Shown piece by piece: positions 24,656-60,695 of a stretch of DNA of 64,000 nucleotides. The DNA is from Lophium mytilinum. Lineage: Eukaryota. The notes beneath the pieces were generated by a model. The model was not told the origin of the DNA. It saw nothing but the letters and a program-made list of their open reading frames with translations, and searched no databases. The first letter of the stretch is position 1. Each line of letters begins with the position of its first letter. A program made the position numbers and the translations under genes. Location: positions 932,726 through 996,725 of the forward strand of contig MU004198.1 of NCBI GenBank assembly GCA_010093605.1, given 5' to 3'.

Positions 24656-27365
24656 ATGACGACGGACAGCTCTCAACAAGTCCAGGCTATTACTGTGAAG
24701 CCCGTGTACCAGTGCCGCTGGTGTGAGACGACCTTTTCGAGACGTGACCATCGCCAACGTCATGAGCGAGCGCATACCAAGGAGAGGCCTTTCCTGTGCC
24801 ATATCTGCAATGCTTCGTTTGGTCGCCGGGACATCCTCCAGCGCCATTGTATCCACGTTCATGGTGCCTTAGCTAGCGACGTGAAGGATGGCCTCGGCCA
24901 TGGAGAGCAATTTAAGGCGCAGGCCGCACGACCTTCGAAGAAACGGCGAATGTCCAATGCAGTTGACACTCCCCCGAAGTCTTCTTTTTCTGCTGAGGAG
25001 CCTGTTCCGGACGATCCGACAAGCACCCGCACCCAGTCGGACCAGCTTGTCAGACGGTCTGTTTTGCCAGATAATCTAGATAAGCTGGAGAAGCTCGAAA
25101 AGCTCTGTCAAAACTCCCCCGGACTTCCGTACATGGACACGAATATCTGGTCGGTGCTTTGTGAGCATTTCGATTTGCCAAAGTCCACGCCAACGTCGAT
25201 TGCTTCACAATGCAATGAAGTTATCACAGAGCGTCCGCCGACGGAAACCCATTTACAGTGTATTGAAAGGGTCCCTGGGCTGGCGCCGCCCCCTCTTAGT
25301 TTCATGAAACATGACAGACCTCGAAGTATTGTTCCTCCTCGTTACCTGAGTGTGCCTCACTCTATCGGAGGCGGAATCGACTTTGTCCTCCAACAGATTG
25401 ATACTGGGCGCATCTTGACGAATTACACCTCACACATCGCGCCAGGCCTGCCAATGCTGCATCTTCCTACTATCGACTTGATTCCCTGGGTCAAACATGG
25501 TCATTCAAAGTGTGATGGGTGCTGCCTCCACAACGGATCTCCCGTTCCCGCTCGCCGTCGTATCAACCGTTGTCTCATGATCAGTCTCCTCACTCTAGGT
25601 GCAATCTGTGACAAGCAGCATGCTCTTGCCGAAAGGTTATTCCGAGAGTCCGGACCCGCAATTCGAGAATACCTCAAAGAGATCCGGCTAAACAAGTCCG
25701 ATGAGCCACCGCCACTGGATCTTATTCAGGCCCTGGCTTGCTACATTGCTTATGGATTATGCTCAGGAAGCAAGCAGGTCGAGGAGAGCATGTTGGGGCA
25801 TATGAGCTGCCTTGGCAGCCTTGTTCACGATGCTCAACTGTCAAAGCCTATGCCAAAATTCATTTACGGTCGTATGAAGCCAGGCCCCGATGACGATTGG
25901 TTTTTATGGGCAGCAGAAGAGGAACGGAAGCGCACATATTTTGCCGTGCTTGTATGTCAGAGTTCAGCGGTGAATTATCTCAACATTCAGCCGTACTTGA
26001 ATCCGAAAGGAATTGAATGGACATTGCCAGTTGAGGAAGATCTCTGGGAAGCTAGAACAGCAGCTTCCTGGCGCGAAATAAGACGACGCACGCCAGAGAC
26101 TCCATTATTCAAAGATGAGCTAGCCCTGCTCTTCGCTAATCCAGGCACATCTTTTCAGGCAGAGGCAGAATTTCCTACTTCGACTATCGGCGAGCATGCA
26201 GAGCTTAATTCCAACCAAAGATCCTTTCCAATCCATCAAACGGATACCTTCATTACTGAAAACCGTATGTTGCCTAGTCAATTTGGCTGCCTCGTTCTGA
26301 TAGGAGCTTTGAATGTCATGGTATGGGAGCACGCTCATGGCCGGATTTTCACGTTCGGGCTCGCGGCTGGCGGACTGGTACCCGGTAAAGGTGCCTTGAT
26401 AAACAAAAGCAGCCTCGCCAATGCCTTGAGACAGTGGCAACATATGTGGGAGTCTTACCCAAAGCACTTTTCCCACGAAGACGCGCGATACCGTCTTCTG
26501 GCGACTTGCGTTCCACTAGTTGATCACGCGGAGTTGCTTCTACATGTTGATATCACACAAGCAAAGGACGCACTTTTCTCAAGGGACTACGAGAAAACAT
26601 CTTTGGCGTATTCAACCCTTCCTGTAGTGATTGATGTGGATGACGACGCATCTTTCGATTCCGATGCCGATTCGCCGCGCTATGAAGAGGTACACAACGA
26701 CGAGGGACGGCACTATGGACTCCGCGGAGCAGCCATCTACGCCGTGAAAGCGCTCGAACTGGCCTATCGCATAGGCCCATGGTTTTCTTCAGAAGACGCA
26801 TGTTATGACGCCCCTATTCAAACATGCGTCGCCATGTTCATTTGCACGCAGGTCGTATCAAGTTGGTTGCTTGCTTACTCCACTAAGCGTCATCCAAATC
26901 CGGATCGCACGTCCAGTCCTGGGATGGAACATCTGAAGGACAGAATGCTCCTCAATGCAATCAAACAACTCATCACCCATCGCAACCAGGTGTCTCTGCC
27001 GGTGGAACAAAATGCGACAAGCGATGTTGCGGTGGAGCTCTCTGACGAGACGGCGATTTTACAACTCGCCATCAGCCTCATCGCTGCGCACGTGCAGCTC
27101 CTGAAACGCGTCAGCTTCTGGCCTCGTAAGTACCGTAGAACCTCGTACAGCTTCAAGGCATACTGACCCATATGTAGCTGCTGCTCATCTTATCGAAGCC
27201 TTACAAGTCCGAGCGGATGCTATACAAGAAGTGTCGAAGCTTGTTCAGCATTGCAAAGCGGATCATCAGCCACCATCGCCTCTGCCTTTTCTCCATCCTG
27301 GCGAGAGCAACTCGCGTACCGATGGTTGGCCGCTTCAGACGGCAATGTTTCCGTGTGCGGGCTGA
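24656..27365 (+). CDS. C2H2 zinc-finger transcription factor with fungal-specific TF middle-homology domain
   Basis: Two C2H2 fingers (CRWCETTFSRRDHRQRHERAH-TKERPF-LCHICNASFGRRDILQRHCIHVH), LPMLHLPT, WAAEEERKRT and LPVEEDLWEA. Terminal intron 27126-27177 extends the frame to TGA 27363-27365. Confidence 0.9.
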
Positions 27366-33851: not shown

Positions 33852-33969
33852 ATACCTTGGCAGCGGTGATAAATAGCGTATATCCTTAGTTTCACACAGG
33901 CCACCTCATTAGCCGGTCCATCTTTTTCCCTCTTGTCCTGTTACCACTTGTCTTAACTCAACTGTCACA

Positions 33970-34665
33970 ATGGCATCGGATGTCGCAAGTGCAGGCCAAT
34001 CGACTCAGCCCAACGGAATCATTCGCGTATACATTGACGATTCGAATGTGTTCCTCGGGGGACAGTCTCACCGTAATCAACCCAATTGGAGAGCCCATAG
34101 ATCCACATGGCGCTACGATCCCGAAAAGCTAACGACCGCGCTCGTGAAAGAAACCGATATGGTCTCTAATCCGCCATATGATCTCAAAGTCAATGTATAT
34201 CGGTCTGTACAAGATGACCTTTGGACCGCATTCCAAAACCACGGCGGCGTAGAGGTGGAAACTTTCGAACGAGGCTATCATTCAGGAACGGAGAAGCAAG
34301 TGGACACAGCTATCGTCGCTGCTTCTGTAGAGGATGCATGCGAGGACAACCACTCGGGAAGGAAAAGTGAGTTCATAATCGTCTCTGGCGATTTGGACAT
34401 GCTACCTGGGATAGAAAAGATTATTAAGAAGAAACGCACCGTTCATGTTTGGTCTTGGAACGAATGCCTTGCCCGCGGCCTTGAACGAACAGATCTTCCG
34501 ATTCAAATTCATTCTCTAGATACCACAGCCACAGAATTTGGTTATCACGAAGATCCCGATCCCTGCAGGTGGGGGATAAACTGTAGATACGGATTCTCTT
34601 GCCAATACGGACACTCTAAAGAAGATATGGAACATTTTAGACAAAAGACCTTTGCAAGAAATTAG
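33970..34665 (+). CDS. NYN (LabA/DUF88, PIN-like) domain nuclease with C-terminal CCCH-type zinc finger
   Basis: VYIDDSNV, EKQVDTAIV, IIVSGDLDMLP and VHVWSW NYN motifs. C-terminal CRWGINCRYGFSCQYGH (C-x5-C-x5-C-x3-H). Confidence 0.88.
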   Translation: MASDVASAGQSTQPNGIIRVYIDDSNVFLGGQSHRNQPNWRAHRSTWRYDPEKLTTALVKETDMVSNPPYDLKVNVYRSVQDDLWTAFQNHGGVEVETFERGYHSGTEKQVDTAIVAASVEDACEDNHSGRKSEFIIVSGDLDMLPGIEKIIKKKRTVHVWSWNECLARGLERTDLPIQIHSLDTTATEFGYHEDPDPCRWGINCRYGFSCQYGHSKEDMEHFRQKTFARN

Positions 34666-39728: not shown

Positions 39729-40525
39729 AATGAGGTTCGGAGTTTGTATTTAGCGGATTGGGTCATTGTGCCGCAGGGCAAGATCAAATGTTTTATCCTG
39801 GTCGGCAGAGGCTTGACCATTAGACAAGCTTAGTCTTGTGGCGTATCCGGAGTTCAATACTCCGTACGCCTCAAGCAGATGACTAAGCATACTTAATAAG
39901 CTGCCGAGCAGGGGAAGGTGATACTGTATGAAGTGTAGAGCCGACTGGAGAAGCTGGGGCTGACGTTAGGGATGGTCTTGGGCAGGATTGATTGGATTCA
40001 ACGAAGGTAGGCTTTAGGGTATAACATCATCCTTCCAGCGAGGTAAATGGAGTCTGGACACTCAGACCTGCGATGTATTTATGAATGTTATTCCGGGGAT
40101 AATGAACCTTAAAACGATGAACGGGTGTTCAAAATGTGTATGGCATGGTCATAGATATACAGCGCAGTTTACTCTCCGGCGATGCTTTTATATTCGAGAC
40201 TGCTCTCTTGTGTTTGTATGTTGCTAGTGATCCATAATCACGTGACTAAATGCGGCGCTGATATCGGGCCAAAACCGAGACCTCACTTCCGCATCACGAC
40301 CACCTTCTTACGTACCCTTAGTCTACGACAACAATCATCTGGCTTCTGTAACCTCTTACTTGTAGTTGTTACTCAGCGATACGGTGACAAAGATCAACTA
40401 CGCCACAAGTTATAGCCGCCCCAGCCGCTCTGCAGCTGTGCCGCAATCTAATATTAGCAGACTTTCCTGCTTCCTCAACCTCTTCTTTCTCAACAAGTCC
40501 TCTTACATCCTCGTCAACAATCATT

Positions 40526-41552
40526 ATGTGCTACTGCTGGCCCTTGTGTCCAAGACCCCGATTTAAACCTTACACGTATCCATGGACCACATGGGAAGCA
40601 CCGCCGCGGAAGCGCAAAACTTCGAAGTCCCTAGTGCCGCTCTATCCAAGACGTTCGCAGACCCAGTCACCGCTCTTTGGCAAACTCTCTACAGAGCTGC
40701 GAATCATCATATATGAGGCCGTGCTAGGGGATCCTGTTCGACTAATGCATATCCTCCCGTACGAAGACGGATCATATCAAGTAGGCCGTCGCCGCTGTGA
40801 GGACATGGCATCTCCGTATCCAACTTGGCAGCACAAATGTTTTGGAGCGTGGTTGGAAGTCCAGAACAACGTGGAAAACAAAAGAATACAGGTTAAGCAT
40901 CCCTCGAAAGACAACCTTCTTGCTTGCCTTTTGAGCTGTCGTCTTGTGTAAGTATATGTACTCTAATCTCTTATTTCTATGCCGCCTCTCGAAATTAGAG
41001 CTTGAGGCTTGTATCTGTTCTCTCTAGTTGCGTTACTAATCCCAATTCCGGTGTAGGTATGCTGAAGCAATCGACATTTTATACACGGCAAATCAATTCA
41101 GCTTGAAAGGTTCAACAGGAATAGTCGCGATGCTCTCAGTTGTACCAAATCCGCAGTGGCACATGATACGTCATCTGCACATCTCGACCATGTTCTTCAC
41201 CCCAAAAAGATATTACTCAAGAGACGCCGGGCAGCGATGGGACTTCCCTCCAGATGATTTCAACAGGTGGTCCGTTGGCTGCATGGTTTTGCAAGATTTA
41301 CGTGGCCTCTACTCTCTACACGTTGACATCATTGTCCGAGACTCAACGCCGCCCGAGGACCCTGATGCAGTGGTCTTTGAGACCCTGGTGTCAGTTCTAG
41401 GACCGCTCAAAGATATCAAAGCCCCAGTGTTTGAGGTCGAGATTAATTTGCCCATTCCGAACACCGTTCAAACTGCACTTGGTATAACCAATTTCACGCT
41501 TTTGGTTCACGAAAGACCGTACAATTGGGATCTTAACGGGGAGACTTCATAG
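40526..41552 (+). CDS. DUF7730-like hypothetical protein (F-box-like QSPLF..LS.ELR..IY start)
   Basis: QTQSPLFGKLSTELRIIIYEAVLG, and LLACLLSCRLV/YAEAIDILYTANQFS across intron 40948-41056. Confidence 0.8.
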
Positions 41553-41589: not shown

Positions 41590-42619
41590 CTAGCCTAGTC
41601 GTACAATGCTCCCATCTTCGTTCACGGTCCTAGGATTGGCTGGATCGTCCATCAATAGGGCCACTATTAAGGCTGGGTCAGCACATGCACATCATCCTGG
41701 GAGCTTGCATGGACCACATACCACTATCGAAGAGTGCAATAGAGTCTGCGTTGTTATCCGCGGCCTTCTTTTTGGGGTTGGTACGACCGTTGACATCTTC
41801 TCCCAGCCTTGCAAGTTGGCCAGCCCACTTCCAACCATATGCAGGCAAGGCTATGACCGGCCTCAAGAAAAAGTCCCGTGGAGTGCTGACCTAGCAGAGA
41901 AGTCAGAACGATAACTGTTAAGCACATGGAGACATAGGAAGGTAAAGTGGGAGAAATCTTACATCGTTCAGGCCCCATTGTCTCTCTCCGTTGATCATCG
42001 CGCTATAGGCGTCTCTACCATGTGTCATTTCGTGTAGAAGGACTTTGTCAAGAAGCGAGAAGGCGTCTGCAATCTCGCTTGTTAGTTTCATCCCATTTAT
42101 TAAGCCGTAATTTCTGTCAGAGCTTGCAGTGGACGTACCGATTTGTCTAAAGTAGCTGTTCTTGCTCTCCACCTTATTGATGAAAGACCTTGCCCACTTC
42201 GTTCTCCTGACAGAATCATTCGTTTTGTATTTCTTATTCTTTATCCAGTCGATGAACCAAGGGCAGAGGTGTATCTTAGTGGGGGAGAAAGCGTCTTTTC
42301 CGTTGATGGTTACGGCTAACGAAAAAATGTTGTCCCAACCCTTGCATGCCCGATCGTTGTAGCGGATCACTTCTTGAGTCGCTAATTGATTAAGGTTATC
42401 GGCATGCTACAAATGGGGAGCTCCGTAGCTCGGGATAGGGCATGGGACCTACTCGGATCTTACTAATAATTCTTAACTGCGTCCACCACTAACAATCTAG
42501 GAGGATTATAAAGTATTATCTACTAGTAGCCATGTAAGCTTTAACTAAATACTTAAGGAATAAAAGGCAATAGGTTTTATAAGCTCTTAAACGTACTATA
42601 TCTTTATACTTAGAATAAG
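41590..42619 (-). pseudogene. 3' part of a secreted zincin metalloprotease gene (HEXXH...NADS, M35/aspzincin-like), cut by a retrotransposon
   Basis: IHLCPWF, DAFSLLDKVLLHEMTH, AYGWKWA, DNNADSIALF. Canonical introns 42138-42067, 41962-41891 and 41721-41664; stop 41590-41592. The sequence becomes RIP-like from ~42450 up to the LTR edge. Confidence 0.85.
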
Positions 42620-43092
42620 TATTATAACCTATAATACTAAGAACTTAATTACTAAGGTATTTAAGAAAGTAAGTAAGTAGATTAGATTAGTTACGCATAA
42701 TCTATATACAGGACCTAGGGGTATAAAAATCTAACGCCTTAGCGTGCTAGATTCCCCTACCTAGCTATAAGATTATAGAATAGAAGGTTATATAATAGAT
42801 TAGGGGGATTATAATAATCTAAGAGAATCTAGATTAAGAAAATTAGAATAATCTATATAATCTATAGATTTCTTAGAAGTTATTTTTCTTATTTAAGTAT
42901 ACTTATTCTTATAGATAGAAATCTTATATTTAACTTAATATTAGTAACTTATACCTACTAATAAGTAACCCTATTTTATACCTAAGATTAATTTACCTTC
43001 TATTCTAAATAATATTGCACCCCTATAAAGACTTAAACTATACTTAGCCTTATATAAGTACTTAAAGAGTATAAAAGAAATAACCTATTATA
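42620..43092 (+). repeat. 5' LTR of copy A
   Basis: TATTATAACC...AACCTATTATA (RIP-altered TG..CA), repeated at 49403-49875. Confidence 0.92.
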
Positions 43093-46000
43093 CTTTAAAT
43101 ACTACTATATTAGAGGATTATATATAAATACCTAATTAAGATAGTACTACTATAGACCTCTTAGAGAAGTACTATCTAAGGCCCTATACTAATAATAGCT
43201 AATATAGCGGGATAAATATAGACGCTACTTAACTAAGTCTAATAGCTAGAACTCTAGAATAAGACTAAGAATAAGAAAATCCTAGCCCTTTAGGGCTACC
43301 TCTAGGCCGTTTAAGGGGAGGTTATAACTAGTAAGGCAACTAGTAGCTATAGAGAATATAAGATAAAGAAACCTAAGAAGTTTTTAGATAATAGAGAAAT
43401 ACTATAAGCCTTCTTAATATAGATAAAGCTATACCTGCTTAATAATAGTAATAACCTTATATTTAAGTTAGATAAGGTCTATATAGTAGTAACCTTCCTT
43501 AAGAAAGAAGCGTTTAACTAGTTTAACCTAGTACTTATAGACTAGCTCTATACTACTAACCTAGTAGAAAGAGTAATAGAGACTAATAATATATTTAGTA
43601 ACTATTAAAATTTTAAAATAGCGCTCTAAACTACCTTTAGAGATATTAATAAAATCTAAACTATAGAATAATAAATTAAAAATCTAAAATAGTATAGCTT
43701 AGCTAGCTACTATACTTTAGAATTTATATAGATATTATTAAAGCTAGACTAGAGAAATAAAGCTCTAGTAGTATAATACTATAGAGGCCTTAAAGAGAAT
43801 ATTAAGAATAAAATCTCTAGAAGTAATAGACTAGTAATAGTCTATAGACTCTAGAAAATAGCTATCTATATTAATAATTAATAATATAAGAGATATATAG
43901 AAAAGATAGACTATAAGGGTCTATAACCCTATATACCTATATATAAAAGAGAAATAATTACTTACTACTCTAGAAAACCTATAAAACTAGACTATAGTAA
44001 ATAATATAAGAAACGCAGGTACTAACTACTATTAGATAAAGAAAAATAGGAATAATATAAGAAGGGCGCGTGCCTATAATATAGAGAGTTAGAATACTTT
44101 ATAAATAAGTGCCCTAAGGGTAATAATAACTAAATAGTAGTAGTTATAATAAAGATACCTAAAGTTAGTTATAGAGCTATATTATAGACTATATACTATA
44201 ATAATAACTACTTTATATACTAATCTAATAAATAGGAATTAGGCTACTATCTACGTGCACCTAAGGGAATGTATATAATAGCTATAATAACTAATAAGAA
44301 GTATATTAATAAGAATAACTCTAGTAATAACTACTACGCTAATATAGAATATAAAGAAATAGAAGTTAACTACCTATTAGAGATAGAAGAATTATTCTAG
44401 ATAATTAGTATACTACTTAAATAGGGGCTAAAGGCTAATAGAAAACTTCTAAGCTTAAAAGTAGATAATAATACTAAACTAGAGTCTCTAAATATATAGT
44501 AAGAGATTAATAAAGTTATATAAATATATTCCCTACTATACTAAACTAATAGAGAATAAGCTCTACTTAGAATAGTTATAAGTAACTATTATATACCTAG
44601 AACCTTTAACCTAGAGTAAGAACCCTCTAGTAAGAAGAAATAAGAAAATTTAGAATAGACTAGCGATAGAGAATTTAGCCTAGCACCTGCTAGAGAACTA
44701 CTAGAACTATATAAACGCAGTACTAGTATTTAAATCTATAGAAGTATATAACCTATAAGAAAAAAAGAAATATATAAATAGAAAGACTCTAGACTAGACT
44801 ATAACTACCTACTTTATAGATAGATATTCTAGCTATCTTATATAGAGGACTAGTATTAAGAGCACCTATTCTATAAGAAGAGCTATAAGTAGTACCTATA
44901 CTAAATAAGATTCTATATTATTATCTACCTAGTATTAGTAAGAGAGGCTAAATACTATATTATAGAAAATAAAAATAAAGAAATAGAAATAGTAATATTT
45001 ATACTAGACCTATAGTACCCTATAGACTATAGAAAAGAATAAGACTAGAGAATCTACTACTAGAACTCTTACCTTATATATTATAAAAAGAAATATGTAA
45101 ACTATTAGCCTTATAAATAGTTAAAAAATAAGTAGGCGCTTAAGCTAAAGAATAGCTAGAGTAGCTAAATAACTAGTTCTTAGAAATAATCTATAGAGAG
45201 TTATTAGCGACTATTACTACTATAGTAGAAATAGAACTAAAGTAAGTAAAGAGAAAAAAGAACCCGGTAATAAAGCCTAACTTCTTACTTATTTCTAATA
45301 ACTAACATATAATTATTAGAGTAATAATTAGTAGAAGACCTATAAGGGCACTACTAAATAGTAGCGCTTAAGAGAACTATATATTCTATACCTTTATTAA
45401 AGAAAACTAGATTCTATAGTAATTAAAAGATAAACCCTATAGATTATAATTAGTAGATGGAAGCCTAGTAAAGTATAGTAGCGGACGCGTAACTATAGAA
45501 ACTTAACTAGGAATTATATAGATTAAAGAATATAAGAAAACTATTAGTATAGATATTATAAGTATAGTAAGATATAATATAATCTTAGAAATATCTTAGC
45601 TAAGATAGTATAACCCCTAAGTTAATTAGAAATCTAGTAAAATATAATTTTAACTAGAAAGCGGACTAAAAGGCACCCTGCGCTAGAATAAGCCTAAGTA
45701 AAAACTAGAGATTAATATAATATCTTTAAGAGGCGTATAGAGAGCCTAAAGAAAAGAATAAATAATAGGCTAATTCTAGTACTAACCTATAAATTCTAAT
45801 AACTAGTAGCTAGCTAAAATAGCTAGAGTACTAGACGTGCTAAGAGTATATAAAGAATTTAGAGGAATCTTCTAGAAAAAGGTTTAGAATGCGTTATTAA
45901 AGCACTAACCTTAGAATTACTAGATACTCTTAGAACTAGGTAAATAACCTAAGTTTAGACTAATCTATTTATTATTCTAGAATAAGCTAGCAATACTTAA

Positions 46001-48739
46001 GGAATACCTAGATAAGAACCTAAAGCGAGGATTTATTTAACTATCTAAATTACCCGCAGGTTACCTAGTAATATTTATTCTAAAGAAAGATAGTAAAATA
46101 CGCCTCTATATAGATTATAGATAGCTTAATAGTATTACTATTAAGAACTATTATCTCTTACTCTTAATCTTAGAGCTAAAGAATTATTTATATAAGGTAA
46201 AATACTTTATAAAGCTAGACCTCTAAGAGGGTTACTACCTTATAAGAATAAAGGAAGAAGAAGAATAGAAAATAGCCTTTAGAACCTAATATAGATACTT
46301 TAAATATATAGTTATACTATTTAGTCTTATAAACGCGCTAGCTATATTTTAAGTAGTAGTAAATACGGCTCTATAGAGTTACCTAGACTAGTTTATAGTA
46401 GTATATCTTAATAATATTCTAATCTATTTAAAGAATAAAGAAGAGTATAAAAAGTATATTAAGAAAGTACTAGAGAAACTTAAGAAATATAATTTTATAG
46501 TTAAGCTAGAGAAATGCAAGTTCTATATATAAAGAGTTAGATTTCTAGAATATATTATTAGTCTAGGTAAGATTAAGATAGAAGAAGCTAAAGTTATATC
46601 TATTATAGAATGGCCGGAACCTAAGAACTTAAAGAAGTTATAGTTCTTTCTAGGTTTAGTAAACTACTATTAATAGTTTATTAAGGGCTACTTAAAGATT
46701 ATAGAACTACTTACTAAACTTATAAGAAAGAATATAGAGTACTAATAGGACCTAGGCGCCTAGGTTATATTTAATAACTTAAAAGTATAGTTTACTTTAA
46801 GACTAGTATTAGTAATCTTTAATCTATAAAAACTAATAACTATTAAAAGTAATATATTAGATAAAGTATTAAAAGCTATACTTAACTAGCTAGATAAATA
46901 AGGGAAGATGCACCCTATAGCGTTCTATTCTAGAAAGCTAAGCCTAGCTAAGCTAAACTATAACATCTATAATAAGAAACTGCTAGCTATAGTAGAAGCA
47001 TTTAAATAATAGAGAGTTTACCTTAAAGAAGCCTTATATATAGTATAGGTGTATATAGATTATAAGAACCTAATCTACTTTATAATAACTAAGAAGTTAA
47101 ACTAATAATAGATTAAATAGTTAGAGAAACTAGAATCTTTTAACTTTAAGATTATATATTAAAAAGGATCTAAGAATACCTATATAGATGCACTAAGTAG
47201 AAGGCCGGACTATATAGTAAAAGACTGTAGTTAAGTACTAATAATACTATAGGAAATTAGTTCTAGAACTCTTAAATTTAACTATATATAGCTAGCGGTA
47301 GCGTACTAAGCTAAAGATAAGAAATAGAAAAAAAGAATTAAGGAAGAGTAAGCTAAGGACCTAGCAAGTTAATAATTGCAAGAAACTTAAGATACTTAAA
47401 AATAGATAGGGCTACTACTATTCTAAGGATAAGTACTTATACCTATAACTCTATAAGATAAGCTTATAAGAAACTTCTATAGCGTACTAGTATATAGGTA
47501 CTAAGAAATTAATAAAATAGTTAAATAACTATCTAGAACCTTCTACTTCCTAGGCATATACTAAGTAGTAGAAAGAATTATTATAGAATATAAATGCGTA
47601 AAAAATAAGTTAGTATAATACGCACTATATAGAGTACTAAGAAGTCTACTAATACCTAAGAAAGTATAGAAATCTATAGTATAGAACTTTATAGTTAAGT
47701 TACTATAGTCTATAGAACCTATAATAGATATAAAGTATAATACTATACTAGTAATTATAGATAGATTAACTAAATATATATACTTTATACCCTACTAGAA
47801 ATTATTAATAGTAGAGAATCTAGCCTATATATTTCTATAAGTAGTTGTTAGCAATTATAGGCTACCTATAGAAATTATTTTAGACTAAGATAAGCTCTTT
47901 ATATTAAAATTCTAGTAGACCCTTATTATATAACTAGGAATAAAGTATAAGCTCTCTATAGCATTCCACCCATAAATAGATAGATAGATAGAAAGGCTTA
48001 ATTAGACTTTAAAATAATACCTATAATACTATATTAATTATAAATAGAATAATTAGGTATTACTATTACTAATAGCCTAGTTTACTTATAATAGCGCATC
48101 TATAGAGATAATAAAGGTATTACTCTTCTATATAAACTATAGTTTTAAGCTAGAGGTATATTAAGAACTATAAACTAGTAATATAAGGGCCTAGAGGGTA
48201 TTACTTTCTTTTAAAAATATTAGAGAACTATAGAAATAGCTATTAATAGATATCTAATTTCTAGTATAAAGGTTAGTATAGTATTATAACTAATATAGGC
48301 GTATTACTTCTACTTTTAAGAGGGGGGATAGAGTATACCTACTCTAAAAAAATATTAAAATAAAATAACTAAGCGGGAAACTTAACTATATTAAGATTAG
48401 ACTATTTAAAATCTAAGATATTATTAGCCTAGTAAACTATAAGCTTAGGCTACTACCTAAAATAAAGATATACCTAGTATTTTATATCTTATTATTAGAA
48501 CTAGCACTCTAGAACGCTAAGCTAGAGAATAATATTAAGGTTAATAATAATAATAAATATAAGGTTAATAAGATTCTAGACTTAAGAATATAGGGTTAGT
48601 AAATAGAGTACCTAATTAAGTAGAAAGAATATAATACCTTAGAAAATATATAGAAACTAGAAAGCTACCTTAGAAAGTACTACTAGATAGTAATATAGTT
48701 TTATTACTAGAATCTAAAATAACCTAGAATAATAGCAAT

Positions 48740-49285
48740 ATTATATTAGCTAACTAGGTAGAATCTATTAAACTAGGCAACTTAATAGAGATAGACGCAC
48801 TAATAGAAGGTAGAGCTTCCCTCTTAATATACTCTTATTCTCTCTACTTAGCCTCTTTATAATCCTCCTCTTCTAACTTCTTAAGAGTACAGAAGCCGCA
48901 TTAAAGCATATCTACTTTATAATACTTAAGTAAATCCTCTTACTTCTCTAGATACTCTACCTTTATAATTACCACTCTTATAGCTTTATAAGTAGTAGAC
49001 TTCTTAGTATAAAGCTTTGCGCAAGTCTAATTAATATAGGCAACTAGAAGAAGTAAGCTAAAAGATAATTAAAAAGAAAAGCTACCTATAATCTACTATA
49101 GTAACTCTACTAGCATTATATTTTATACACCTATAATAGATATACTCCCTATAGTAACCTAAGGCTAAAAAAAGCACCTTATAGTCTAAGAACTACTCCC
49201 AGTAGAAGAAATAAAAAACTATAGAAATACTAGAGAGAGTAATATAGGCACTAAATATAGAGTATTATTTAACCTTATTAGATAT
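48740..49285 (-). pseudogene. Antisense Zn(II)2Cys6-like/coiled-coil ORF inside copy A, RIP-inactivated
   Basis: Mirror image of 51157-~51700 in copy B. The 3' end is approximate. Confidence 0.6.
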
Positions 49286-49402
49286 AGTAGAAGAAATAGA
49301 AGGGTATAATAATACCTAAGTAGTTAGGAAATTACTAGCTATTTATCTAAGACCCTACTATAAAGTAACTTTTAGGCTAAAAGCCTTAAAAAAAGAAGTA
49401 AG

Positions 49403-49875
49403 TATTATAACCTATAATACTAAGAACTTAATTACTAAGATATTTAAGAAAGTAAGTAAGTAGATTAAATTAGTTACGCATAATCTATATACAGGACCTA
49501 GAGGTATAAGAATCTAACACCTTAGCGTGCTAGATTCCCCTACCTAGCTATAAGGTTATAGAATAGAAGGTTATATAATAGATTAGGGGGATTATAATAA
49601 TCTAAGAGAATCTAGATTAAGGGGATTAGAATAATCTATATAATCTATAGATTTCTTAGAAGTTATCTTTCTTATTTAAGTATACTTATTCTTATAGATA
49701 GAAACCTTATATTTAACTTAATATTAGTAACTTATACCTACTAATAAGTAACCCTATCTTATATCTAAGATTAATTTACCTTCTATTCTAAATAATATTA
49801 CACCCCTATAAAGACTTAAACTATACTTAGCCTTATATAAGCACTTAAAGAGTATAGAAGAGATAACCTATTATA
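49403..49875 (+). repeat. 3' LTR of copy A
   Basis: Direct repeat of 42620-43092 of the same length, preceded by a purine-rich tract. Confidence 0.92.
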
Positions 49876-50245
49876 TATAACTATACTACCGCAACCTAAA
49901 TAGATAATACCTATTTTAAAATATAGTATTACCGGCAACTTCTTAGTAAGTATACTAAGTAAATTAAAGACCTCTATATCTAAGATCTATTCTTAATCTA
50001 AGTATACCTTAAGCTAAATATAACTATTCTAGTAGGGTTATATTACAGCGTTAGGCTATAAAGCCTATATACGCTTTTCTTAGAATTCTATAAGAATAAT
50101 ATACTACGCCTTATAGGCGGAGTTAATAGATAACTATTTAGGGATATATCTCTACGCAAGATTAAAGCATATATTATTTATTACGCAAGTCTTTTCTATT
50201 ATTATTAACCCGGCCTCTAATCTTTTATAATTAGTAATCTCTACT

Positions 50246-50566
50246 ATAGTTCTATATAGTCTCTTTCTTATCTTATTACTTCTACCTATATCTATTTCTA
50301 CGTACTAAATTAATACATTATGCGTTCTAAAAGGGATTAATAAAGATATTAAAACTGTAATAATAAATGCTTTTATAATAGTAGATGCGGCTATTAGATA
50401 TCTAGATACTATTACCTATACCCTAGAGACTATAGACTTAATTAAATAGCTATTTATTATAAAGAGAGGTTAAAATCCCCGCAATAAAAATAGAATATAG
50501 AAGGTCTAAGATATACTTTAGAGTATTAGAAATAATTATAGAAATAAAGTTAATATAAGTACTTAT
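50246..50566 (+). pseudogene. Inverted, RIP-mutated first exon of the metalloprotease gene
   Basis: ATA (from ATG) at 50246 opens (M)VLYSLFLILLLLPISISTY*INTLC...NAFIIVDAAI...TIDLIK*LF. This reads as a signal peptide plus N-terminus whose stops are all TAA/TAG, as expected from C>T. ATAAGT (possible GTAAGT donor) lies at 50555, just before the TSD. Confidence 0.7.
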
Positions 50567-51039
50567 TATAATAGGTTATCTCTTCTATACTCTTTAAGTG
50601 CTTATATAAGGCTAAGTATAGTTTAAGTCTTTATAGGGGTGCAATATTATTTAGAATAGAAGGTAAATTAATCTTAGGCATAAGATAGGGTTACTTATTA
50701 GTAGATATAAGTTACTAATATTAAGTTAAATATAAGGTTTCTATCTATAAGAATAAGTATACTTAAATAAGAAAGATAACTTCTAAGAAATCTATAGATT
50801 ATATAGATTATTCTAATTCCCTTAATCTAGATTCTCTTAGATTATTATAATCCCCCTAATCTATTATATAACCTTCTATTCTATAACCTTATAGCTAGGT
50901 AGAGAAATCTAGCACGCTAAGGCGTTAGATTCTTATACCTCTAGGTCCTGTATATAGATTATGCGTAACTAATTTAATCTACTTACTTACTTTCTTAAAT
51001 ATCTTAGTAATTAAATCCTTAGTATTATAGGTTATAATA
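50567..51039 (-). repeat. 3' LTR of copy B
   Basis: Reverse complement of the 473-bp LTR. Confidence 0.92.
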
Positions 51040-51156
51040 CTTACTTCTCTCTTTAAGGCTTTTAGCCTAAAAGTTACTCTATAGTAGGGTCTTAGATAAA
51101 TAGCTAGTAATTCTCTAACTACTTAGATATTATTATACCCTTCTATTTCTTCTACT

Positions 51157-51700
51157 ATATCTAATAAGGTTAAATAACACTTTATACTTAGTGCCTATAT
51201 TACTCTCTCTAGTATCCCTATAGTTTTTTATTTCTTCTACCGGGAGTAGTTCTTAGACTATAAGGTGCTTTTCTTAGCCTTAGATTACTATAAGAAGTAT
51301 ATCTATTATAGGTATATAAAATATAACGCTAGTAGAGTTACTATAGTAGATTATAGGTAGCTTTCCTTTTTAATTATCTTTTAGCTTACTTCTTCTAGTT
51401 GCCTATATTAATTAGACTTGCGCAAAGCTTTATACTAAGAAGTCCGCTACTTATAAAGCTATAAGAGTAGTAATTATAAAGATAGAGTATCTAGAGAAGT
51501 AAAAGGATTTACTTAAGTATTATAAAGTAGATATACTTTAACGCGGCTTCTATACTCTTAAGAAGTTAGAAGAGAAGAATTATAAAGAGGCTAAGTAGAG
51601 AGAATAAGAGTATATTAAAAGGGAAGCCCTATCTTTTATTAGTGCGTCTATCTCTATTAAGTTGCCTAGTTTAATAGATTCTACCTAGTTAGCTAATATA
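51157..51700 (+). pseudogene. Antisense Zn(II)2Cys6-like/coiled-coil ORF inside copy B, RIP-inactivated
   Basis: TAY codons (from TGY) spaced x2-x6-x9-x2-x7 at 51229-51324. Intron-like 51353-51398, then a coiled-coil segment reconstructing to MLRRGFCTLEELEEE. The 3' end is approximate. Confidence 0.65.
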
Positions 51701-54700
51701 ATATTACTATTATTCTAGGTTATTCTAGATTCTAGTAATAGAACTATATTACTATCTAGTAGTACTTTTTAAGGTAGCTTTCTAGTTTCTATATATTTTC
51801 TAAGGTATTATATTCTTTCTACTTAATTAGGTACTCTATTTACTAACCCTATATTCTTAAGTCTAGAATCTTATTAACCTTATATTTATTATTATTATTA
51901 ACCTTAATATTATTCTCTAGCTTAGTATTCTAGGGTGCTAGTTCTAATAATAAGACGTAAAATACTAGATATATCTTTATTTTAGGTAGTAGCCTAAGCT
52001 TATAGTTTACTAGGCTAATAATATCTTAGATTTTAAATGGTCTAATCTTAATATAGTTAAGTTTCCCGCTTAGTTATTTTATTTTAATATTTTTTTAGAG
52101 TAGGTATACTCTATCCCCTCTCTTAAAAGTAGGAGTAATATACCTATATTAGTTATAATACTATACTAACCTTTATACTAGAAATTAGATATCTATTAAT
52201 AGCTATTTCTATAGTTCTCTAATATTTTTAATAGAAAGTAATACCCTCTAGGCCCTTATATTACTAGTTTATAGTTCTTAATATGCCTCTAGCTTAAAAC
52301 TATAGTTTATATAGAAGGGTAATACCTTTATTATCTCTATAGATGCGCTATTATAAGTAAACTAGGCTATTAGTAATAGTAATACCTAATTATTCTATTT
52401 ATAATTAATATAGTATTATAGGTATTATTCTAAAGTCTAATTAAGTCTTTCTATCTATCTATCTATTTACGGGTAGAATACTATAGAGAGCTTATACTTT
52501 ATTCCTAGTTATATAATAAGGGTCTACTAGAATTTTAATATAAAGAGCTTATCTTAGTCTAAAATAACTTCTATAGATAGCCTATAATTACTAACAACTA
52601 CTTATAGAAATATATAGGCTAGATCCTCTACTATTAATAATTTCTAATAAGGTATAAAGTATATATATTTAGTTAATCTATCTATAATTACTAGTATAGT
52701 ATTATACTTTATACCTATTATAGGTTCTATAGACTATAGTAACTTAACTATAAAGTTCTATACTATAGATTTCTATACTTTCTTAGATATTAGTAGACTT
52801 TTTAGTAGTCTATATAGTATATATTATACTAACTTATTTTTTATATATTTATATTCTGCGATAATTCTTTCTACTACTTAGTATATGCCTAGAAAGTAGA
52901 AGGTTCTAGATAGTTATTTAACTATTTTATTAATTTCTTAGTACCTATATACTAGTGCGCTATAGAAGTCTCTTATAAGCTTATCTTATAGAGTTATAGG
53001 TATAAGTACTTATTCTTAGAATAGTAGTAGCCCTATCTATTTTTAAGTATCTTAGGTTTCTTATAATTATTAACTCGCTGGGTCCTTAGCTTACTCTTCC
53101 TTAATTTTTTTTTCCTATTTCTTATCTTTAGCTTAGTATACTACCGCTAGCTATATATAGTTAAATTTAAGAGTTCTAGAACTAATTTCCTATAGTATTA
53201 TTAGTACTTAACTGCGGTTTTTTACTATATAGTCTAGCCTTCTACTTAGTGCGTCTATATAGATATTCTTAGATTCTTTTTAATATATAATCTTAAAGTT
53301 AAAAGATTCTAGTTTCTCTAACTATCTAACCTATTATTAGTTTAACTTCTTAGTTATTATAAAGTAGATTAAATTCTTATAATCTATATATACCTATACT
53401 ATATATAAGGCTTCTTTAAGGTAAACTCTCTATTATTTAAATGCTTCTACTATAGCTAGCAGTTCCTTATTATAGATATTATAGTTTAGCTTAGCTAGGC
53501 TTAGCTTTCTAGAATAGAACGCTATAGGGTGTATCTTCCCTTATTTATCTAGCTAGTTAAGTATAGCTTCTAATACTTTATCTAATATATTACTTTTAAT
53601 AGTTATTAGTTTTTATAGATTAAAGATTACTAATACTAGTCTTAAAGTAAACTATACTTTTAAGTTATTAAATATAATCTAGGCGCCTAGGTCCTATTAG
53701 TACTCTATATTCTTTCTTATAAGTTTAGTAAGTAGTTCCGCAATCTTTAAGTAGCCCTTAATAAACTATTAATAGTAGTTTACTAAACCTAGAAAGAACT
53801 ATAACTTCTTTAAGTTCTTAGGTTCTAGCTATTCTATAATAGATATAACTTTAGCTTCTTCTATCTTAATCTTACCTAGACTAATAATATATTCTAGAAA
53901 TCTAACTCTTTATATATAGAACTTGCATTTCTCTAGCTTAACTATAAGATTATATTTCTTAAGTTTCTCTAGTACTTTCTTAACATACTCTTTATACTCT
54001 TCTTTATTCTCTAAATAGATTAGAATATTATTAAGATATGCTACTATAAACTAGTCTAGGTAACTCTATAAAGCTATATTTACTACTACTTAGAATATAG
54101 CTAGCGCGTTTATAAGACTAAATAGTATAACTATATACTTAAAGTGTCTATATTAGGTTCTAAAGGCTATTTTCTATTCTTCTTCTTTCTTTATTCTTAT
54201 AAGGTAGTAACCCTTTTAAAGGTCTAGCTTTATAAAGTATTTTACCTTATATAAATAATTCTTTAGCTTTAAGATTAAGGGTAAGAGATAATAGTTTTTA
54301 ATAGTAATACTATTAAGCTATCTATAATCTATATAGAGGCATATTTTACTATCTTTCTTTAAAATAAATATTACTAGGTAACCTATAGATAATTTAGATA
54401 GTTAAATAAATTCTTACTTTAGGTTCTTATCTAGGTATTTCTTAAGTGTCGCTAGCTTATTCTAGGATAATAAATAGATTAGTCTAAACTTAGGTTATTT
54501 ACCTAGTTCTAAGGGTATCTAGTAATTCTAAGGTTAGTACTTTAGTAATATATTCTAAACCTTTTTCTAGAAGATTCCTCTAAATTCTTTATATACTCTT
54601 AGCATGTCTAGTACTCTAGCTATTTTAGCTAGCTACTAGTTATTAGAATTTATAGGTTAGTACTAGAATTAGCCTATTATTTATTCTTTTCTTTAGGCTC

Positions 54701-57349
54701 TCTATACGCCTCTTAAAGATATTATATTAATCTCTAGTTTTTACTTAGGCTTATTCTAGCGCAGGGTGCCTTTTAGTCCGCTTTCTAGTTAAAATTATAT
54801 TTTACTAGATTTCTAATTAACTTAGGGGTTATACTATCTTAGCTAAGGTATTTCTAAGATTATATTATATCTTACTATACTTATAATATCTATACTAATA
54901 GTTTTCTTATATTCTTTAATCTATATAATTTTTAGTTAAGTTTCTATAGTTACGCGTTTACTACTATACTTTACTAGGCTTCTATCTACTAATTATAATC
55001 TATAGGGTTTATCTTTTAATTACTATAAAATCTAGTTTTCTTTAATAAAGGTATAGAATATATAGTTCTCTTAAGCGCTACTATTTAGTAGTACCCTTAT
55101 AGGTCTTCTACTAATTATTACTCTAATAATTATATGTTAGTTATTAGAAATAAGTAAGAAGTTAGACTTTATTACCGGGTTCTTCTTTCTCTTTACTTAC
55201 TTTAGTTCTATTTCTACTATAGCAGTAATAGTTGCTAATAACTCTCTATAGGTTATTTCTAAGAACTAGTTATTTAGCTACTCTAGCTATTCTTTAGCTT
55301 AAGCGCCTACTTATTTTTTAACTATTTATAAGGCTAATAGTTTATATATTTCTTTTTATAATATATAAGGTAAGAGTTCTAGTAGTAGATTCTCTAGTCT
55401 TATTCTTTTCTATAGTCTATAGGGTACTATAGGTCTAGTATAAATATTACTATTTTTATTTCTTTATCCTTATTTTCTATAATATAGTGTTTAGCCTCTC
55501 TTACTAATACTAGGTAGGTAATAATATAGAATCTTATTTAGTATAGATACTACTTATAGCTCTTCTTATAGAATAGGTACTTTTAATACTAGTTCTCTAT
55601 ATAAGATAGCTAGAATATCTATTTATAAAGTAGATAGTTATAGTCTAGTCTAGAGTCTTTCTATTTATATATTTCTTTTTCCTTTATAGGTTATATACTT
55701 CTATAGATTTAGATACTAGTACTATATCTATATAGTTCTAGTAGTTCTCTAGCAGGTGCTAGGCTAAATTCTCTATTGCTAGTCTATTCTAAATTTTCTT
55801 ATTTCTCCTTACTAGAGGGTTCTTACTCTAGATTAAAGGTTCTAGGTATATAATAGTTGCTTATAACTATTCTAAGTAGAGCTTATTCTCTATTAGTTTA
55901 GTATAGTAGAAAATATATCTATATAACTTTATTAATCTCTTACTATATATTTAGAGACTCTAGTTTAGTATTATTATCTACTTTTAAGCTTAGAAGTTCC
56001 CTATTAGCCTTTAGCCCCTATTTAAGTAGTATACTAATTATCTAGAATAATTCTTCTATCTTTAATAGGTAGTTAACTTCTATTTCTTTATATTCTATAT
56101 TAGCGTAGTAGTTATTACTAGGGTTATTCTTATTAATATACTCCTTATTAGTTATTATAGCTATTATATATATTCTCTTAGGTGCACGCAGGTAGTAGCC
56201 TAATTTCTATTTATTAGATTAGTATATAAAGTAGTTATTATTATAGTACGCGGTCTATAATATAGCTCTATAACTAACTTTAGGCGTCTTTATTATAACT
56301 ACTACTATTTAGTTATTATTATTCTTAGGGCACTTATTTATAAAGTATTCTAACTCTCCGCATTATAGGCACGCGCCCTTCTTGCATTATTTCTATTTTT
56401 CTTTATCTAATAGCGGTTAGTACCTATATTTCTTATATTATTTACTATAGTCTAGTTCTATAGGTTCTCTAGAGTAGTAAGTAATTATTTCTCTCTTATA
56501 TATAGATATATAGAGTTATAGGCTCTTATAGTCTATCTTTTCTATATATCTCTTATATTATTAATTATTAATATAGATAGCTATTTCCTAGAGTCTATAG
56601 ACTATTACTAGTCTATTACTTCTAGAGATTTTATTCTTAATATTCTCTTTAAGGCCTCTATAGTATTATACTACTAGAGCTTTATTTCCCTAGTCTAGCT
56701 TTAATAATATCTATATAAATTCTAAAGTATAGTAGCTAGCTAAGCTATACTATTTTAGGTTTTTAATTTATTATTCTATAGTTTAGATTTTATTAATGTC
56801 TCTAAAGATAGTTTAGAGCGCTATTTTAAAATTTTAATAGTTACTAAATATATTATTAGTTTCTATTACCCTTTCTACTAGGTTAGTAGTATAGAGCTAG
56901 TCTATAAGTACTAGATTAAACTAGTTAAATACTTCTTTCTTAAGAAAGATTACTACTATATAGACCTTATCTAACTTAAATATAAGATTATTACTATTAT
57001 TAAGTAGGTATAGCTTTATCTATATTAAGAAGGCTTATAGTATTCCTCTATTACTTAAGAACTTCTTAAGTTTCTTTATCTTATATTCTCTATAGCTACT
57101 AGTTATCTTACTAGTTATAACCTCTTCTTAAATGGCCTAGAGGTAGCCCTAGAGAGCTAGAATTTTCTTATCCTTAGTCTTATTCTAGAGTTCTAGCTAT
57201 TAGACTTAGTTAAGTAGCATCTATATTTATTCTACTATATTAGCTATTATTAGTATAGAGCCTTAGATAGTACTTTTCTAAGAGGTCTATAGTAGTACTA
57301 TCTTAATTAGGTATTTATATATAATCCTCTAATATAGTAGTATTTAAAG

Positions 57350-57822
57350 TATAATAGGTTATTTCTTCTATACTCTTTAAGTACTTATATAAGGCTAAGT
57401 ATAGTTTAAGTCTTTATAGGGGTGCAATATTATTTAGAATAGAAGGTAAATTAATCTTAGGTATAAAATAGAGTTACTTATTAGTAGGTATAAGTTACTA
57501 ATATTAAGTTAAATATAAGGTTTCTATCTATAAGAATAAGTATACTTAAATAAGAAAGATAACTTCTAAGAAATCTATAGATTATATAGATTATTCTAAT
57601 CCCCTTAATCTAGATTCTTTTAAATTATTATAATCCCTCTAATCTATTATATAACCTTCTATTCTATAACCTTATAGCTAGGTAGGGGAATCTAGTATAC
57701 TAAGGCGTTAAATTCTTATACCCCTAGGTCCTGTATATAGATTATGCGTAACTAATCTAATCTACTTACTTACTTTCTTAAATACCTTAGTAATTAAGTC
57801 CTTAGTGTTATAGGTTGTAACA
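57350..57822 (-). repeat. 5' LTR of copy B
   Basis: Reverse complement of the 473-bp LTR. Ends TGTAACA on the plus strand at 57822. Confidence 0.92.
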
Positions 57823-58563
57823 TTACAGCGTGTATGCCTTAGTGTAGCGCCCTCTAAGTCCAACAACGTTTCATTAACTTCTTGGAAATGGGGCGAATTT
57901 GCGGCGAGGATGCGGTGCTCAATCCTTTCGAACAAATGCTACGTAGAAATAGCGGCGTGGTTACCGCGCGGTTGCAGCGTGCAGCTAACTTGCGAGCTAT
58001 GACAGGGCCAAATCTAAGTCACGAGGGCATCATAGGGACTTCCACGAGTACCCCAAGTGGCGCGATTGCCTTGAATTCGAACGATCTATGTAGAACGTCT
58101 TCAGCCTCGTAGATATATACACTGTTAGTGTCCAGAAAGGTAGCCGCTTCGGATAAGAAAGGGAATAGATGCGGGCGATGGACCAGATCAGAGAATGTGA
58201 TCGAGTGCACGTGAGAGATCTGTAGTTCCCGCCCCATACGTCCGAGCCGAAGCCCCCTGGAGTCGGCGGCTCTATAAGGAGCGTACTGCGCGCGAATCGA
58301 GATGCTATCTTGTTTGAAACAATGGCACAGTCGGTCAGGGCTGTGAACTCGGCAACATTCAACATAGCCACAAGTACTCGCGGGAATCATCCTAAGGCAT
58401 TGAAGTTTGTTTCAGGTTACGCCGCCCCCTGAGGAAATCCTCGATCGTCGTGCCGTGGGCCTGCAGCTGGAAGACTTTCATTGAAGAACCCCGCAAGGTA
58501 TCTAGTCATGTTATCGCCCGGCCATCTATTCCAACATCTTCAAAGTACACTTTTGTATGCACA

Positions 58564-60695
58564 ATGATTCAATCAAGTACATTATCTCTTCTATCTCTTC
58601 TCGGGGGAATCTCTGCCCTGATTGTTCATTCTGAATCTATCACTACAACTCCTACGGATCCCACTCTTGAACGACGACAAGACCCTCCACCAACCGATGT
58701 CGCCGGTGCTCCCAATGCCGCGTCCATTCCTACACTTACTCTTGGTCCTGAGGATCAGTACGCTGCAAAAACAGTAGATAGCCTGCCATTACCTCGTTAT
58801 ACGGTCGCTAATGGTATTAGGTAGATTATCCTGAGCCCACAGGCGACAAGCTCCAGATCTATCCTACCGGCTTATATGATGACTTCCCCAAAGACGGTAT
58901 CACCATATCGTTCGGGCCAGAGCTTCATGTAAAAATCAAGGATACAATGGACAATAAGTGCAAAGGAAGTTTCCAAGATTGCCAAAGTGCTCTGATCCCC
59001 CTTCTTTACAATACGGATGTTGGGACGGTCGTCAAGCGGTTTGCTCCAGCAACGTATTATGCAAGTGTATTGGTCGCATCGATCAGTTGGGTGATTCAAC
59101 GTCTATGGAACAAGGAACAGCCTCAGCATGTCAAGTTCCCGTACACCGATTTGCACCAGATGCAGGACCTCGGACCAGTAGAGACGATTGCTATCCAGCA
59201 GGAGGATGCAGATCCCACCACTATCGCAATGCCGGCATCCCCAACACCAACGCCGACTAAGACGTAAGTGAGAAGCTGTCTCTACCATTCAGTTCCATCG
59301 TAGAACGTCTTTCGTTTCAGCTGACGAGTGTTAACGTGCATGAATAGCGAGTTCATAACCATCGAAACATTGACCGCGGATTCCGGCGAACGCAAAGCTG
59401 GAGACATCGTGTACCATGTCCCGGTAGACACCGCCAATCGAATGAAAGACCTTTTGGGTATACTAGGTCTCGATATCGTCCAGAAAAGCTGTAAAGACCA
59501 GGACCTGAATAAGCCAGTGAAGAGTCGCATTCGGGCCGATGTATTGGAGGAATGTGTGCGAAATATAGAACGGTTAGTGGATGCAGTTGCAGAAGCCGCT
59601 CCTCGGGAGCTTGTTCGCGTGGCGGCCGAGAACATCCCCGCGCAGCCTGCACCAGATCAGCTGGTTGGACTGCCAATTCGTCATCTCGTACTTAACAATA
59701 GGCTTGTCATAGTTCGCATAGCGCATGTCGACCAAGTTGCTGAGTGGGCTCGTCTCGTAGCTCTTGTAGCTGTTCTCAATATCGTGGCTGAATGGGCGTT
59801 TCAACCGCAAGCCCACATGGAAAATGACATTTGGATCCCTGATTCGGCGCTCGAGAAAAGTTTGAAGTGGAAAGACGTGCTGTGTCCCAAGGACATACTT
59901 TGTGTCGATGACGAATGCAAGGGCCAAAAAGAGGAACAGGACATGATAGAGTGGAGCCCCATCTGTCAATCGGTGAGTAACTAAGCATTCATACGTGTGG
60001 TCTTTGATATCCGCACAATTACCTCAACGATCCACCAGCGGTTCTGTCAGACTAAGCTAAAGCCAATTGGGAAGACTCCAATAGTCGACAATGGTTGCTA
60101 ACGCGAGTGAAAAGGATGAGAATAGAGGTTGCAGGTGTGAGCCAATAACTTGGATTTACCAGACCGAAGTCGCGCGGGATTACATGGACACGCAGTATGC
60201 GTGGTTAGAAGAGCTCCTCGCACGGGCCGATACGCCGGAATTCAAGCCAAAGTGCGACGGCGACTTTCAGGAATCCCAAGTGGGCGTAGATCTATTTTCG
60301 ACGTAGGTTTCCCATGCTTTTTTCTTGTCTTGGCCATTCGCTGACTTGTTTTAGTGAGATCAAGCAGCTATGCAAGGACCACACAAAGCTCCAAGACGGA
60401 CTTAATGTCAAAGGCCCAAATGACGAAAATTATTGGACCGCGGATGATTCTGCTCAAGGTTTCACGTGGTCAATAACATGGGAGAACACTAAAGACACAT
60501 GCGAATTCGAATGCGAGGAAGTGTTCCTTGCGTTCAAGAATGACAAAGATTGTACGTACTCGTAGTGTTCTAACAGAGTCAGTGTCTTTACTAATGTTGG
60601 CTCTCTCAGGTGTCAAAGATAACGGCCTCATGAAGAATGGAAAGATTGAGACTGACTGTGGGACTGCTTCGTACAGTGCGTACAAGCTAAGCTAG
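58564..60695 (+). CDS. Secreted Cys-rich multi-exon hypothetical protein
   Basis: Signal peptide and LERRQ Kex2-like site. In-phase canonical introns at 59264-59347, 59973-60114, 60303-60354 and 60552-60609. Ends GKIETDCGTASYSAYKLS*. The first intron (acceptor 58820) has an ambiguous donor. Confidence 0.75.

Follow-up and report, generated by a model that had tools for sequence, protein, structure and literature searches.

Exchanged target-site duplications point to an inversion between two inverted Ty3/Gypsy copies in a Lophium mytilinum contig

The locus

How did two inverted copies of one retrotransposon come to stand 691 nt apart in a 64,000-nt stretch of Lophium mytilinum DNA (contig MU004198.1 of assembly GCA_010093605.1, positions 932,726 to 996,725, hereafter the window), each bordered by two 5-bp sequences that do not match, and in which orientation was the DNA that now lies between them? 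The copies, here called A and B, are Ty3/Gypsy elements with long terminal repeats (LTRs), they are strongly altered in the manner of repeat-induced point mutation (RIP), and they divide a gene whose product carries an HExxH motif. As assembled, the DNA between the copies runs opposite to its ancestral order. The history that we propose, with a probability of about 80%, is that two independent insertions were followed by a crossover between the inverted copies, by which the spacer was flipped.

Anatomy of the element pair

A repeat search of the window found inverted arms at 42622–49875 and 50567–57820, which are 96% complementary and have 691 nt between them. The ends of the elements were set by the homology between A and B and by the homology between LTRs, which gives the following features.

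42620–49875, plus strand: copy A, RIP-degraded Ty3/Gypsy chromovirus, 7256 bp (repeat search, LTR and A/B alignment)
42620–43092, plus strand: 5' LTR of copy A
43093–49402, plus strand: internal region of copy A
~45348–48896, plus strand: protease (PR), reverse transcriptase (RT), RNase H, integrase and chromodomain region of copy A, in a single frame (the frame starting at 42621; Pfam and alignment to an intact relative, P0001)
49403–49875, plus strand: 3' LTR of copy A
49876–50566, no strand: spacer, 691 bp, fully RIP-like with a G+C fraction (GC) of 0.26, inverted relative to the ancestral gene order
50567–57822, minus strand: copy B, same family as A, 7256 bp (repeat search, LTR alignment, Pfam)
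50567–51039, minus strand: 3' LTR of copy B
51040–57349, minus strand: internal region of copy B
57350–57822, minus strand: 5' LTR of copy B

Copy A, spacer and copy B together span 42620–57822, that is 15,203 bp, and the near-palindrome of ~15.2 kb with 7256-bp arms and a spacer of ~690 bp that a preliminary description of this DNA had given is borne out by the measured lengths. The copies lie tail to tail with their 3' ends facing each other across the spacer, and the LTRs are direct repeats of 473 bp with a start-to-start spacing of 6783. At each of the four ends the homology of the arms stops precisely at an LTR terminus, with no homology between the flanks, which speaks for two insertions made by integrase rather than a segmental inverted duplication. 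The spacer sequence occurs once in the window, and neither further copies nor solo LTRs of the element are found elsewhere in these 64 kb.

Target-site duplications are exchanged between the copies

Read from left to right the junctions have the order ATAAG, copy A, TATAA, remainder of the spacer, CTTAT, copy B, TTACA. A reading of each junction confirmed, base for base, the four 5-mers and the positions that had been claimed for them; below they are attributed to two presumptive original insertions, element 1 and element 2.

42615–42619, no strand: ATAAG, outer copy of the element 1 duplication (junction reading)
49876–49880, no strand: TATAA, inner copy of the element 2 duplication, from TGTAA by one TpG>TpA change
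50562–50566, no strand: CTTAT, inner copy of the element 1 duplication, reverse complement of ATAAG
57823–57827, no strand: TTACA, outer copy of the element 2 duplication, reverse complement of TGTAA, located in non-RIP-like DNA

That neither copy has matching flanks of its own, as first described, holds even when all transitions are allowed; own-copy 5-bp duplications are then still excluded by position 1 for A and by position 3 for B. Paired across the copies the flanks do agree, with 5/5 positions for ATAAG and CTTAT and 4/5 for TATAA against TGTAA. The single G>A difference noted in the preliminary description is there; in context it is TpG>TpA, as RIP would produce, and it is located on the heavily RIP-mutated inner side, with the outer copy of the same duplication in unmutated DNA. 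For the chance expectation, 5-mers were drawn from the RIP-like and the normal DNA of the window itself, with the demand that one swapped pair be exact and the second exact or one transition away, and this pattern arose in 60 of 2,000,000 draws (3e-5).

A split gene indicates the probable ancestral order

The gene that is divided by the element pair has one part in the left flank of copy A and its 5' part in the spacer, located as follows.

41684–42614, minus strand: downstream part of the split gene with the motif HEMTH; residues ~93–241 of relative P0066, and the equivalent residues of other relatives, align here
41918–42406 and 41678–41890, minus strand: open frames of the split gene, with a probable short intron between them
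50246–50566, plus strand: 5' part of the split gene, with a signal-peptide-like start, ~105 codons and 6 stop codons, reading rightward into CTTAT

The frame 41918–42406 on the minus strand has 162 codons and 48 relatives at E<=1e-3 (best 3e-20), and corresponds to full-length relatives from about residue 90 onward. The 60–140 N-terminal residues that are missing should lie to the right of the frame, toward the insertion. All 48 relatives were compared by tblastn with three separate pieces, namely the left flank, the spacer and the right flank. Residues 93–241 of P0066 are found on the minus strand of the left flank (E 4e-31), and the N-terminal residues of relatives on the plus strand of the spacer, at 50234–50551. 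The best of these spacer matches are residues 1–58 of P0066 (43.1 bits, E 7e-10) and residues 1–55 of P0074 (43.1 bits, E 6e-10), followed by residues 6–103 of P0083 (E 3e-8), P0071 (E 5e-8), residues 6–102 of P0106 (E 5e-7), and P0068, P0075, P0077 and P0078 at E 1e-5 to 5e-4. These are the nine relatives in our control table with an N-terminus on the spacer plus strand (E 6e-10 to 5e-4), and in the same nine the later residues are located on the minus strand of the left flank. Among the matches listed, no minus-strand match in the spacer is better than E ~0.1. The spacer alignments contain the signal-peptide-like start, conserved blocks and the six stop codons, the conserved blocks of the family being around LCPWFVDWI and LLDKVLLHEMTHG. 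In the controls none of the 48 queries scored above 23.5 bits in 14.5 kb of element DNA that is just as AT-rich, or above 24.3 bits in 100 shuffled spacers; the score observed in the real spacer was 43.1 bits.

The 5' part of the gene thus reads rightward into CTTAT and the remainder reads leftward from ATAAG. Gene parts on opposite strands are what the inversion model predicts, and a spacer colinear with the ancestral order does not predict them.

The preliminary description had also suggested an in-silico reconstruction of the empty site. We rebuilt it by script with the spacer turned back, and in a control kept the spacer as assembled; the protein relatives of the flanking gene here serve as the protein-level equivalent of an empty-site comparison. 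With the spacer turned back, both gene matches share a strand and follow each other colinearly, the reading frame is kept through the ATAAG junction, the N-terminal matches extend 8–31 codons past the junction, and the scores rise from 43.1 to 45.1 bits for P0066 and from 35.0 to 41.2 bits for P0106. In the control, where the spacer keeps its assembled orientation, the matches are on opposite strands and end where the spacer ends. The earlier proposal that two insertions recombined and inverted the spacer is accordingly supported by two lines of evidence, the swapped duplications and the order of the split gene.

The start of the gene should be the ATA at 50246, formerly an ATG before a TpG>TpA change. 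A Pfam search found nothing significant in the split-gene fragment and in seven of its relatives, and no match in the six frames of the spacer. From its sequence the product looks like a secreted protein of an HExxH family for which Pfam has no model, and our guess would be a zincin-like metalloprotease. In the left flank the downstream exons have kept their frames open, suggesting a disruption that is not ancient.

RIP in the copies, the spacer and the left flank

RIP is a premeiotic process that needs the RID/DIM-2 machinery, and its dinucleotide indices have customary cut-offs. GC is ~0.5 over the window except at 42500–57822, where it falls to 0.25–0.31; in A, spacer and B it is 0.26 against ~0.5 in the flanks, with sharp borders. 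The TpA/ApT index is 1.75–1.77 in the copies and ~0.8 in the flanks, and the (CpA+TpG)/(ApC+GpT) index is 0.11–0.12 in the copies and ~1.2 in the flanks. Both indices are shifted in the same directions in the single-copy spacer, to 1.49 and 0.22 respectively.

The alignment of A and B contains no indels and 290 differences, of which 288 are transitions, in the contexts CpC (99), CpT (68), CpG (67) and CpA (54). That the differences are mostly outside CpA fits a near-saturation of the preferred CpA sites, and it is this near-saturation that leaves two independently mutated copies still 96% alike, with practically only transitions and no indels between them. RIP-like mutation reaches about 120 bp into the left flank (42500–42619), so that the last ~120 bp of the downstream gene part toward 42614 are RIP-like as well, and it hardly enters the right flank (57823–57900). 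The least mutated part of either copy is the outer end of the 5' LTR of B, which keeps TGTTAC. The two inner LTRs, the 3' LTRs of A and B, are the most alike, with 10 differences against 17–23 in the other LTR pairs, and this is explained by their position beside the linker. It agrees with experiments in Neurospora crassa, which showed RIP to spread into a linker of ~700 bp and to be strongest in the adjoining parts of the repeats (bioRxiv 10.1101/344036).

The element is a Ty3/Gypsy chromovirus

With stop codons read as X, Pfam finds RVT_1, RT_RNaseH and SH3_Tf2-1, in that order, in a single frame of both copies. The frame is colinear with P0001 at 45–47% identity from the protease through the chromodomain, P0001, the best protein relative of the element, being intact and 1469 residues long, with protease, reverse transcriptase, RNase H, an integrase zinc finger (H2C2), the integrase core, SH3 and a chromodomain. 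In A and B the integrase is located downstream of reverse transcriptase and RNase H, and the label Gypsy used in the preliminary description is borne out by domain order and by colinearity with P0001; the type is that of the chromoviruses. In the degraded A and B themselves Pfam calls no chromodomain, integrase core or protease. The stretch that aligns to residues 1126–1175 of P0001, its Chromo domain, is present in both, without a Pfam call.

A polypurine tract directly precedes the 3' LTR of each copy. The 5' LTR of B begins with TGTTAC on the minus strand, and all four LTRs end with ...TTATA, which is compatible with ...CA before RIP. In the sequence after the 5' LTR, looked at without comparison with a set of tRNAs, we recognised no site complementary to a tRNA. 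About 300 stop codons interrupt the frame, and both copies are dead. A metagenome scan with P0001 for an unmutated sister copy found none, as its 80 loci did not exceed 56% amino-acid identity.

Other RIP-mutated copies of the family are seen in the same genome as short-read contigs that are 90–99% like A and B and have different flanks, and loose contig ends of such copies are found at 42620 and elsewhere. The 8 nt to the left of A (42612–42619, AGAATAAG) are similar to the final part of the polypurine tract that precedes the 3' LTRs (49395–49402, AGAAGTAAG), and the 5' flank of B, which ends with GTAA, is unlike them. A misplaced LTR boundary at the left end of A was rejected as the reason: these 8 nt are missing from the 5' flank of B, and the likeness ends after 8 nt. 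It is probably due to chance or to a preference for purine-rich targets.

Proposed history

Two copies of one chromodomain-bearing Ty3/Gypsy element would have integrated independently, tail to tail and 0.69 kb apart. Element 1, with the duplication ATAAG, would have landed inside the first coding exon of the HExxH gene, and element 2, with the duplication TGTAA, ~0.37 kb upstream of the gene start at a site that looks like a divergent promoter region. Two insertions of the same family within 0.7 kb are plausible given integrases with a target preference: chromodomain integrases reportedly target heterochromatin, and Tf1-type elements prefer promoters. A crossover between the inverted copies should then have flipped the inner parts of both elements together with the 691-bp stretch of promoter and 5' exon, leaving A and B as hybrids, each with one duplication from each original insertion. 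RIP would have mutated both copies, the linker and ~120 bp of the left flank, almost saturating the CpA sites. We infer that the exchange was by homologous recombination, that the copies are hybrid, and that the assembled orientation is the orientation in the genome.

The HExxH gene would in this way have been hit three times over, by an insertion in exon 1, by inversion of its promoter and 5' exon, and by stop codons of the RIP type. It is rather unlikely, in our estimate, that the inversion took place in the same premeiotic stage as RIP, or that it still recurs between the mutated and presumably heterochromatic arms. If it did, the locus would offer a natural readout of recombination between inverted repeats that RIP has silenced, both isomers should be present among nuclei or isolates, and the excess of shared in-register LTR mutations and the 242-bp identical tract described below would be scars of conversion.

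Points against the proposed history and alternative explanations

Several observations weigh against the history given above. The original LTR pairs that it predicts (5' LTR of A with 3' LTR of B, and 5' LTR of B with 3' LTR of A) differ at 19 and 21 sites, and are no closer than the present pairs, with 17 and 23. Along the A/B differences there is no switch point, the four mutation classes being mixed over the whole length; hybrid copies cannot be demonstrated because RIP has overwritten the markers. Of the 8 LTR sites at which the four LTRs divide 2:2, six put A together with B in register (P ~0.02–0.06, a weak signal), which is predicted neither by independent insertion nor by a single crossover and may be due to gene conversion or to regionally correlated RIP. 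The in-frame extension over the rebuilt junction is short and the similarity there is modest, and the ancestral order is taken from protein relatives, no uninverted or empty allele of another strain having been seen. Finally, the contigs of the public runs end 30–46 nt inside the LTRs and link the spacer to neither flank, and the spacer orientation in the real genome is given by the assembly alone.

The longest identical run of A and B is 242 bp (45595–45836 in A and 54606–54847 in B), which is marginally significant against a mean of 25 bp between differences (P ~0.02), and could mark either a tract of conversion or the place where the exchange took place. Likeness was tried as a guide to the original LTR partners and was given up, since no pairing stands out except the inner LTRs, for which the position beside the linker accounts.

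The alternative that survives best is an assembly flip, in which each element has its own duplication, the 5' exon is colinear and merely interrupted by element 1, and the spacer was traversed in the wrong direction. It predicts the same swapped duplications and the same picture of a split gene. Only two public runs contain the locus, both of them short-read data from one sample that are available as k-mer contigs, and these contigs reproduce all four junctions with 0 differences; they break at the LTR ends beside the spacer, which are identical for 75 nt (the nearest difference between the two 3' LTRs is at LTR position 398, at 49800 in A and 50642 in B). The window, however, is gap-free through 7.3-kb copies that the short-read contigs break into pieces of ~230–500 bp, so the assembly probably used long-range data that should also have oriented the spacer, and arms that differ at 290 sites, with no identical run longer than 242 bp, can be phased by ordinary read pairs. 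We consider such a flip improbable, though it is the alternative to be taken most seriously.

Less probable still is a recurrent recombination between the arms, by which both orientations coexist and the assembly is one isomer of a polymorphic or mosaic locus. Arms of 7.3 kb at 96% identity are a good substrate for recombination, and both the six in-register LTR sites and the 242-bp stretch could be traces of conversion, but the in-register signal is weak, RIP-mutated DNA is usually heterochromatic and a divergence of 4% lowers homologous recombination.

Least credible of all is an origin without recombination between the elements, through chance 5-mers with breakage and end joining or through inverted duplication of one already mutated element, for although arms that are 96% alike in spite of heavy mutation, with some differences between 5' and 3' LTR in common, are what copies of a pre-mutated element would look like, and although AT-rich flanks raise the number of chance matches, the draws described above put the swapped pattern at 60 in 2,000,000, the homology stops at the LTR termini on four sides with an inverted segment bounded exactly by the two elements, and near-saturation of CpA (index 0.12) gives high identity without shared descent of the mutations.

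Neighbouring genes

The window is fungal by its flanking genes, which include a fungal-specific transcription factor domain, DUF7730 and COMPASS Shg1, and the element pair is an isolated AT-rich island within a gene-rich stretch of ordinary-looking fungal genes. The neighbouring frames with Pfam matches are the following.

40388–41552, 24623–27166, 19984–22218 and 33913–34665, plus strand: neighbouring frames (Pfam)

The domains found in neighbouring frames are DUF7730, in two frames that probably belong to a single intron-containing gene, the fungal-specific transcription factor domain, COMPASS Shg1 and a NYN domain. To the right of copy B, open frames at 58396–59267 on the plus strand include a signal-peptide-like stretch. 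They suggest a gene that diverges from the split gene, in which case element 2 would be in a shared promoter region.

Comparison with known systems

Fungal chromoviruses, of which MAGGY is an example, are Ty3/Gypsy elements with a chromodomain after the integrase. Copies A and B are like them in having LTRs, a polypurine tract, one long frame that by alignment to P0001 has the order protease, reverse transcriptase, RNase H, integrase and putative chromodomain, and 5-bp duplications, and differ in that both are dead and that Pfam itself calls neither the chromodomain nor the integrase core nor the protease in them.

The RIP pattern is like that reported for closely spaced repeats in Neurospora crassa (bioRxiv 10.1101/344036), where only C>T and G>A changes occur, the linker is invaded, and inverted repeats are recognised as well as direct ones. 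The test repeats of that report were engineered, 0.3–0.8 kb long and examined after one cross, whereas A and B are natural, 7.3 kb long and mutated to near-saturation.

Among the papers listed in the literature search we found the general precedent, but no account of an inverted pair of retrotransposons that is both RIP-mutated and marked by exchanged duplications. Ectopic recombination with exchanged duplications is a mechanism already well known, and the locus is a further instance of it, clean but ordinary, which adds no new mechanism. It is a compact and readable case, in which two integrations, an exchange and RIP leaking into a neighbouring gene are found in one short interval. As a method it indicates that, without a second genome, the original arrangement of DNA caught between repeats can be worked out from proteins related to the product of a flanking gene.

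In the maize centromere 10, chimeric CR elements that are full-length and have mismatched 5-bp flanks are read as products of recombination between elements (PMC4806543). The account of these elements used here does not present partner elements and reciprocal product together, whereas at our locus the presumed reciprocal products, A and B, stand side by side.

The closest system is that of the Galileo inversions 2j, 2q7 and 2z3 of Drosophila buzzatii, in which exchanged duplications are taken as the established sign that inverted transposon copies have recombined ectopically (PMC2775673). As at our locus, the inverted segment has a homologous copy at either end, the two in opposite orientation; each copy is bordered by one duplication of either original insertion, and the short sequences beside the copies correspond as reverse complements. 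Unlike Galileo, A and B are copies of an LTR retrotransposon with 5-bp duplications, any trace of chimerism in them has been overwritten by RIP, and the ancestral order comes from protein relatives, not from an uninverted allele. The geometry is also unusual, with only 691 bp of unique inverted segment between arms of 7.3 kb in a near-palindrome of 15.2 kb.

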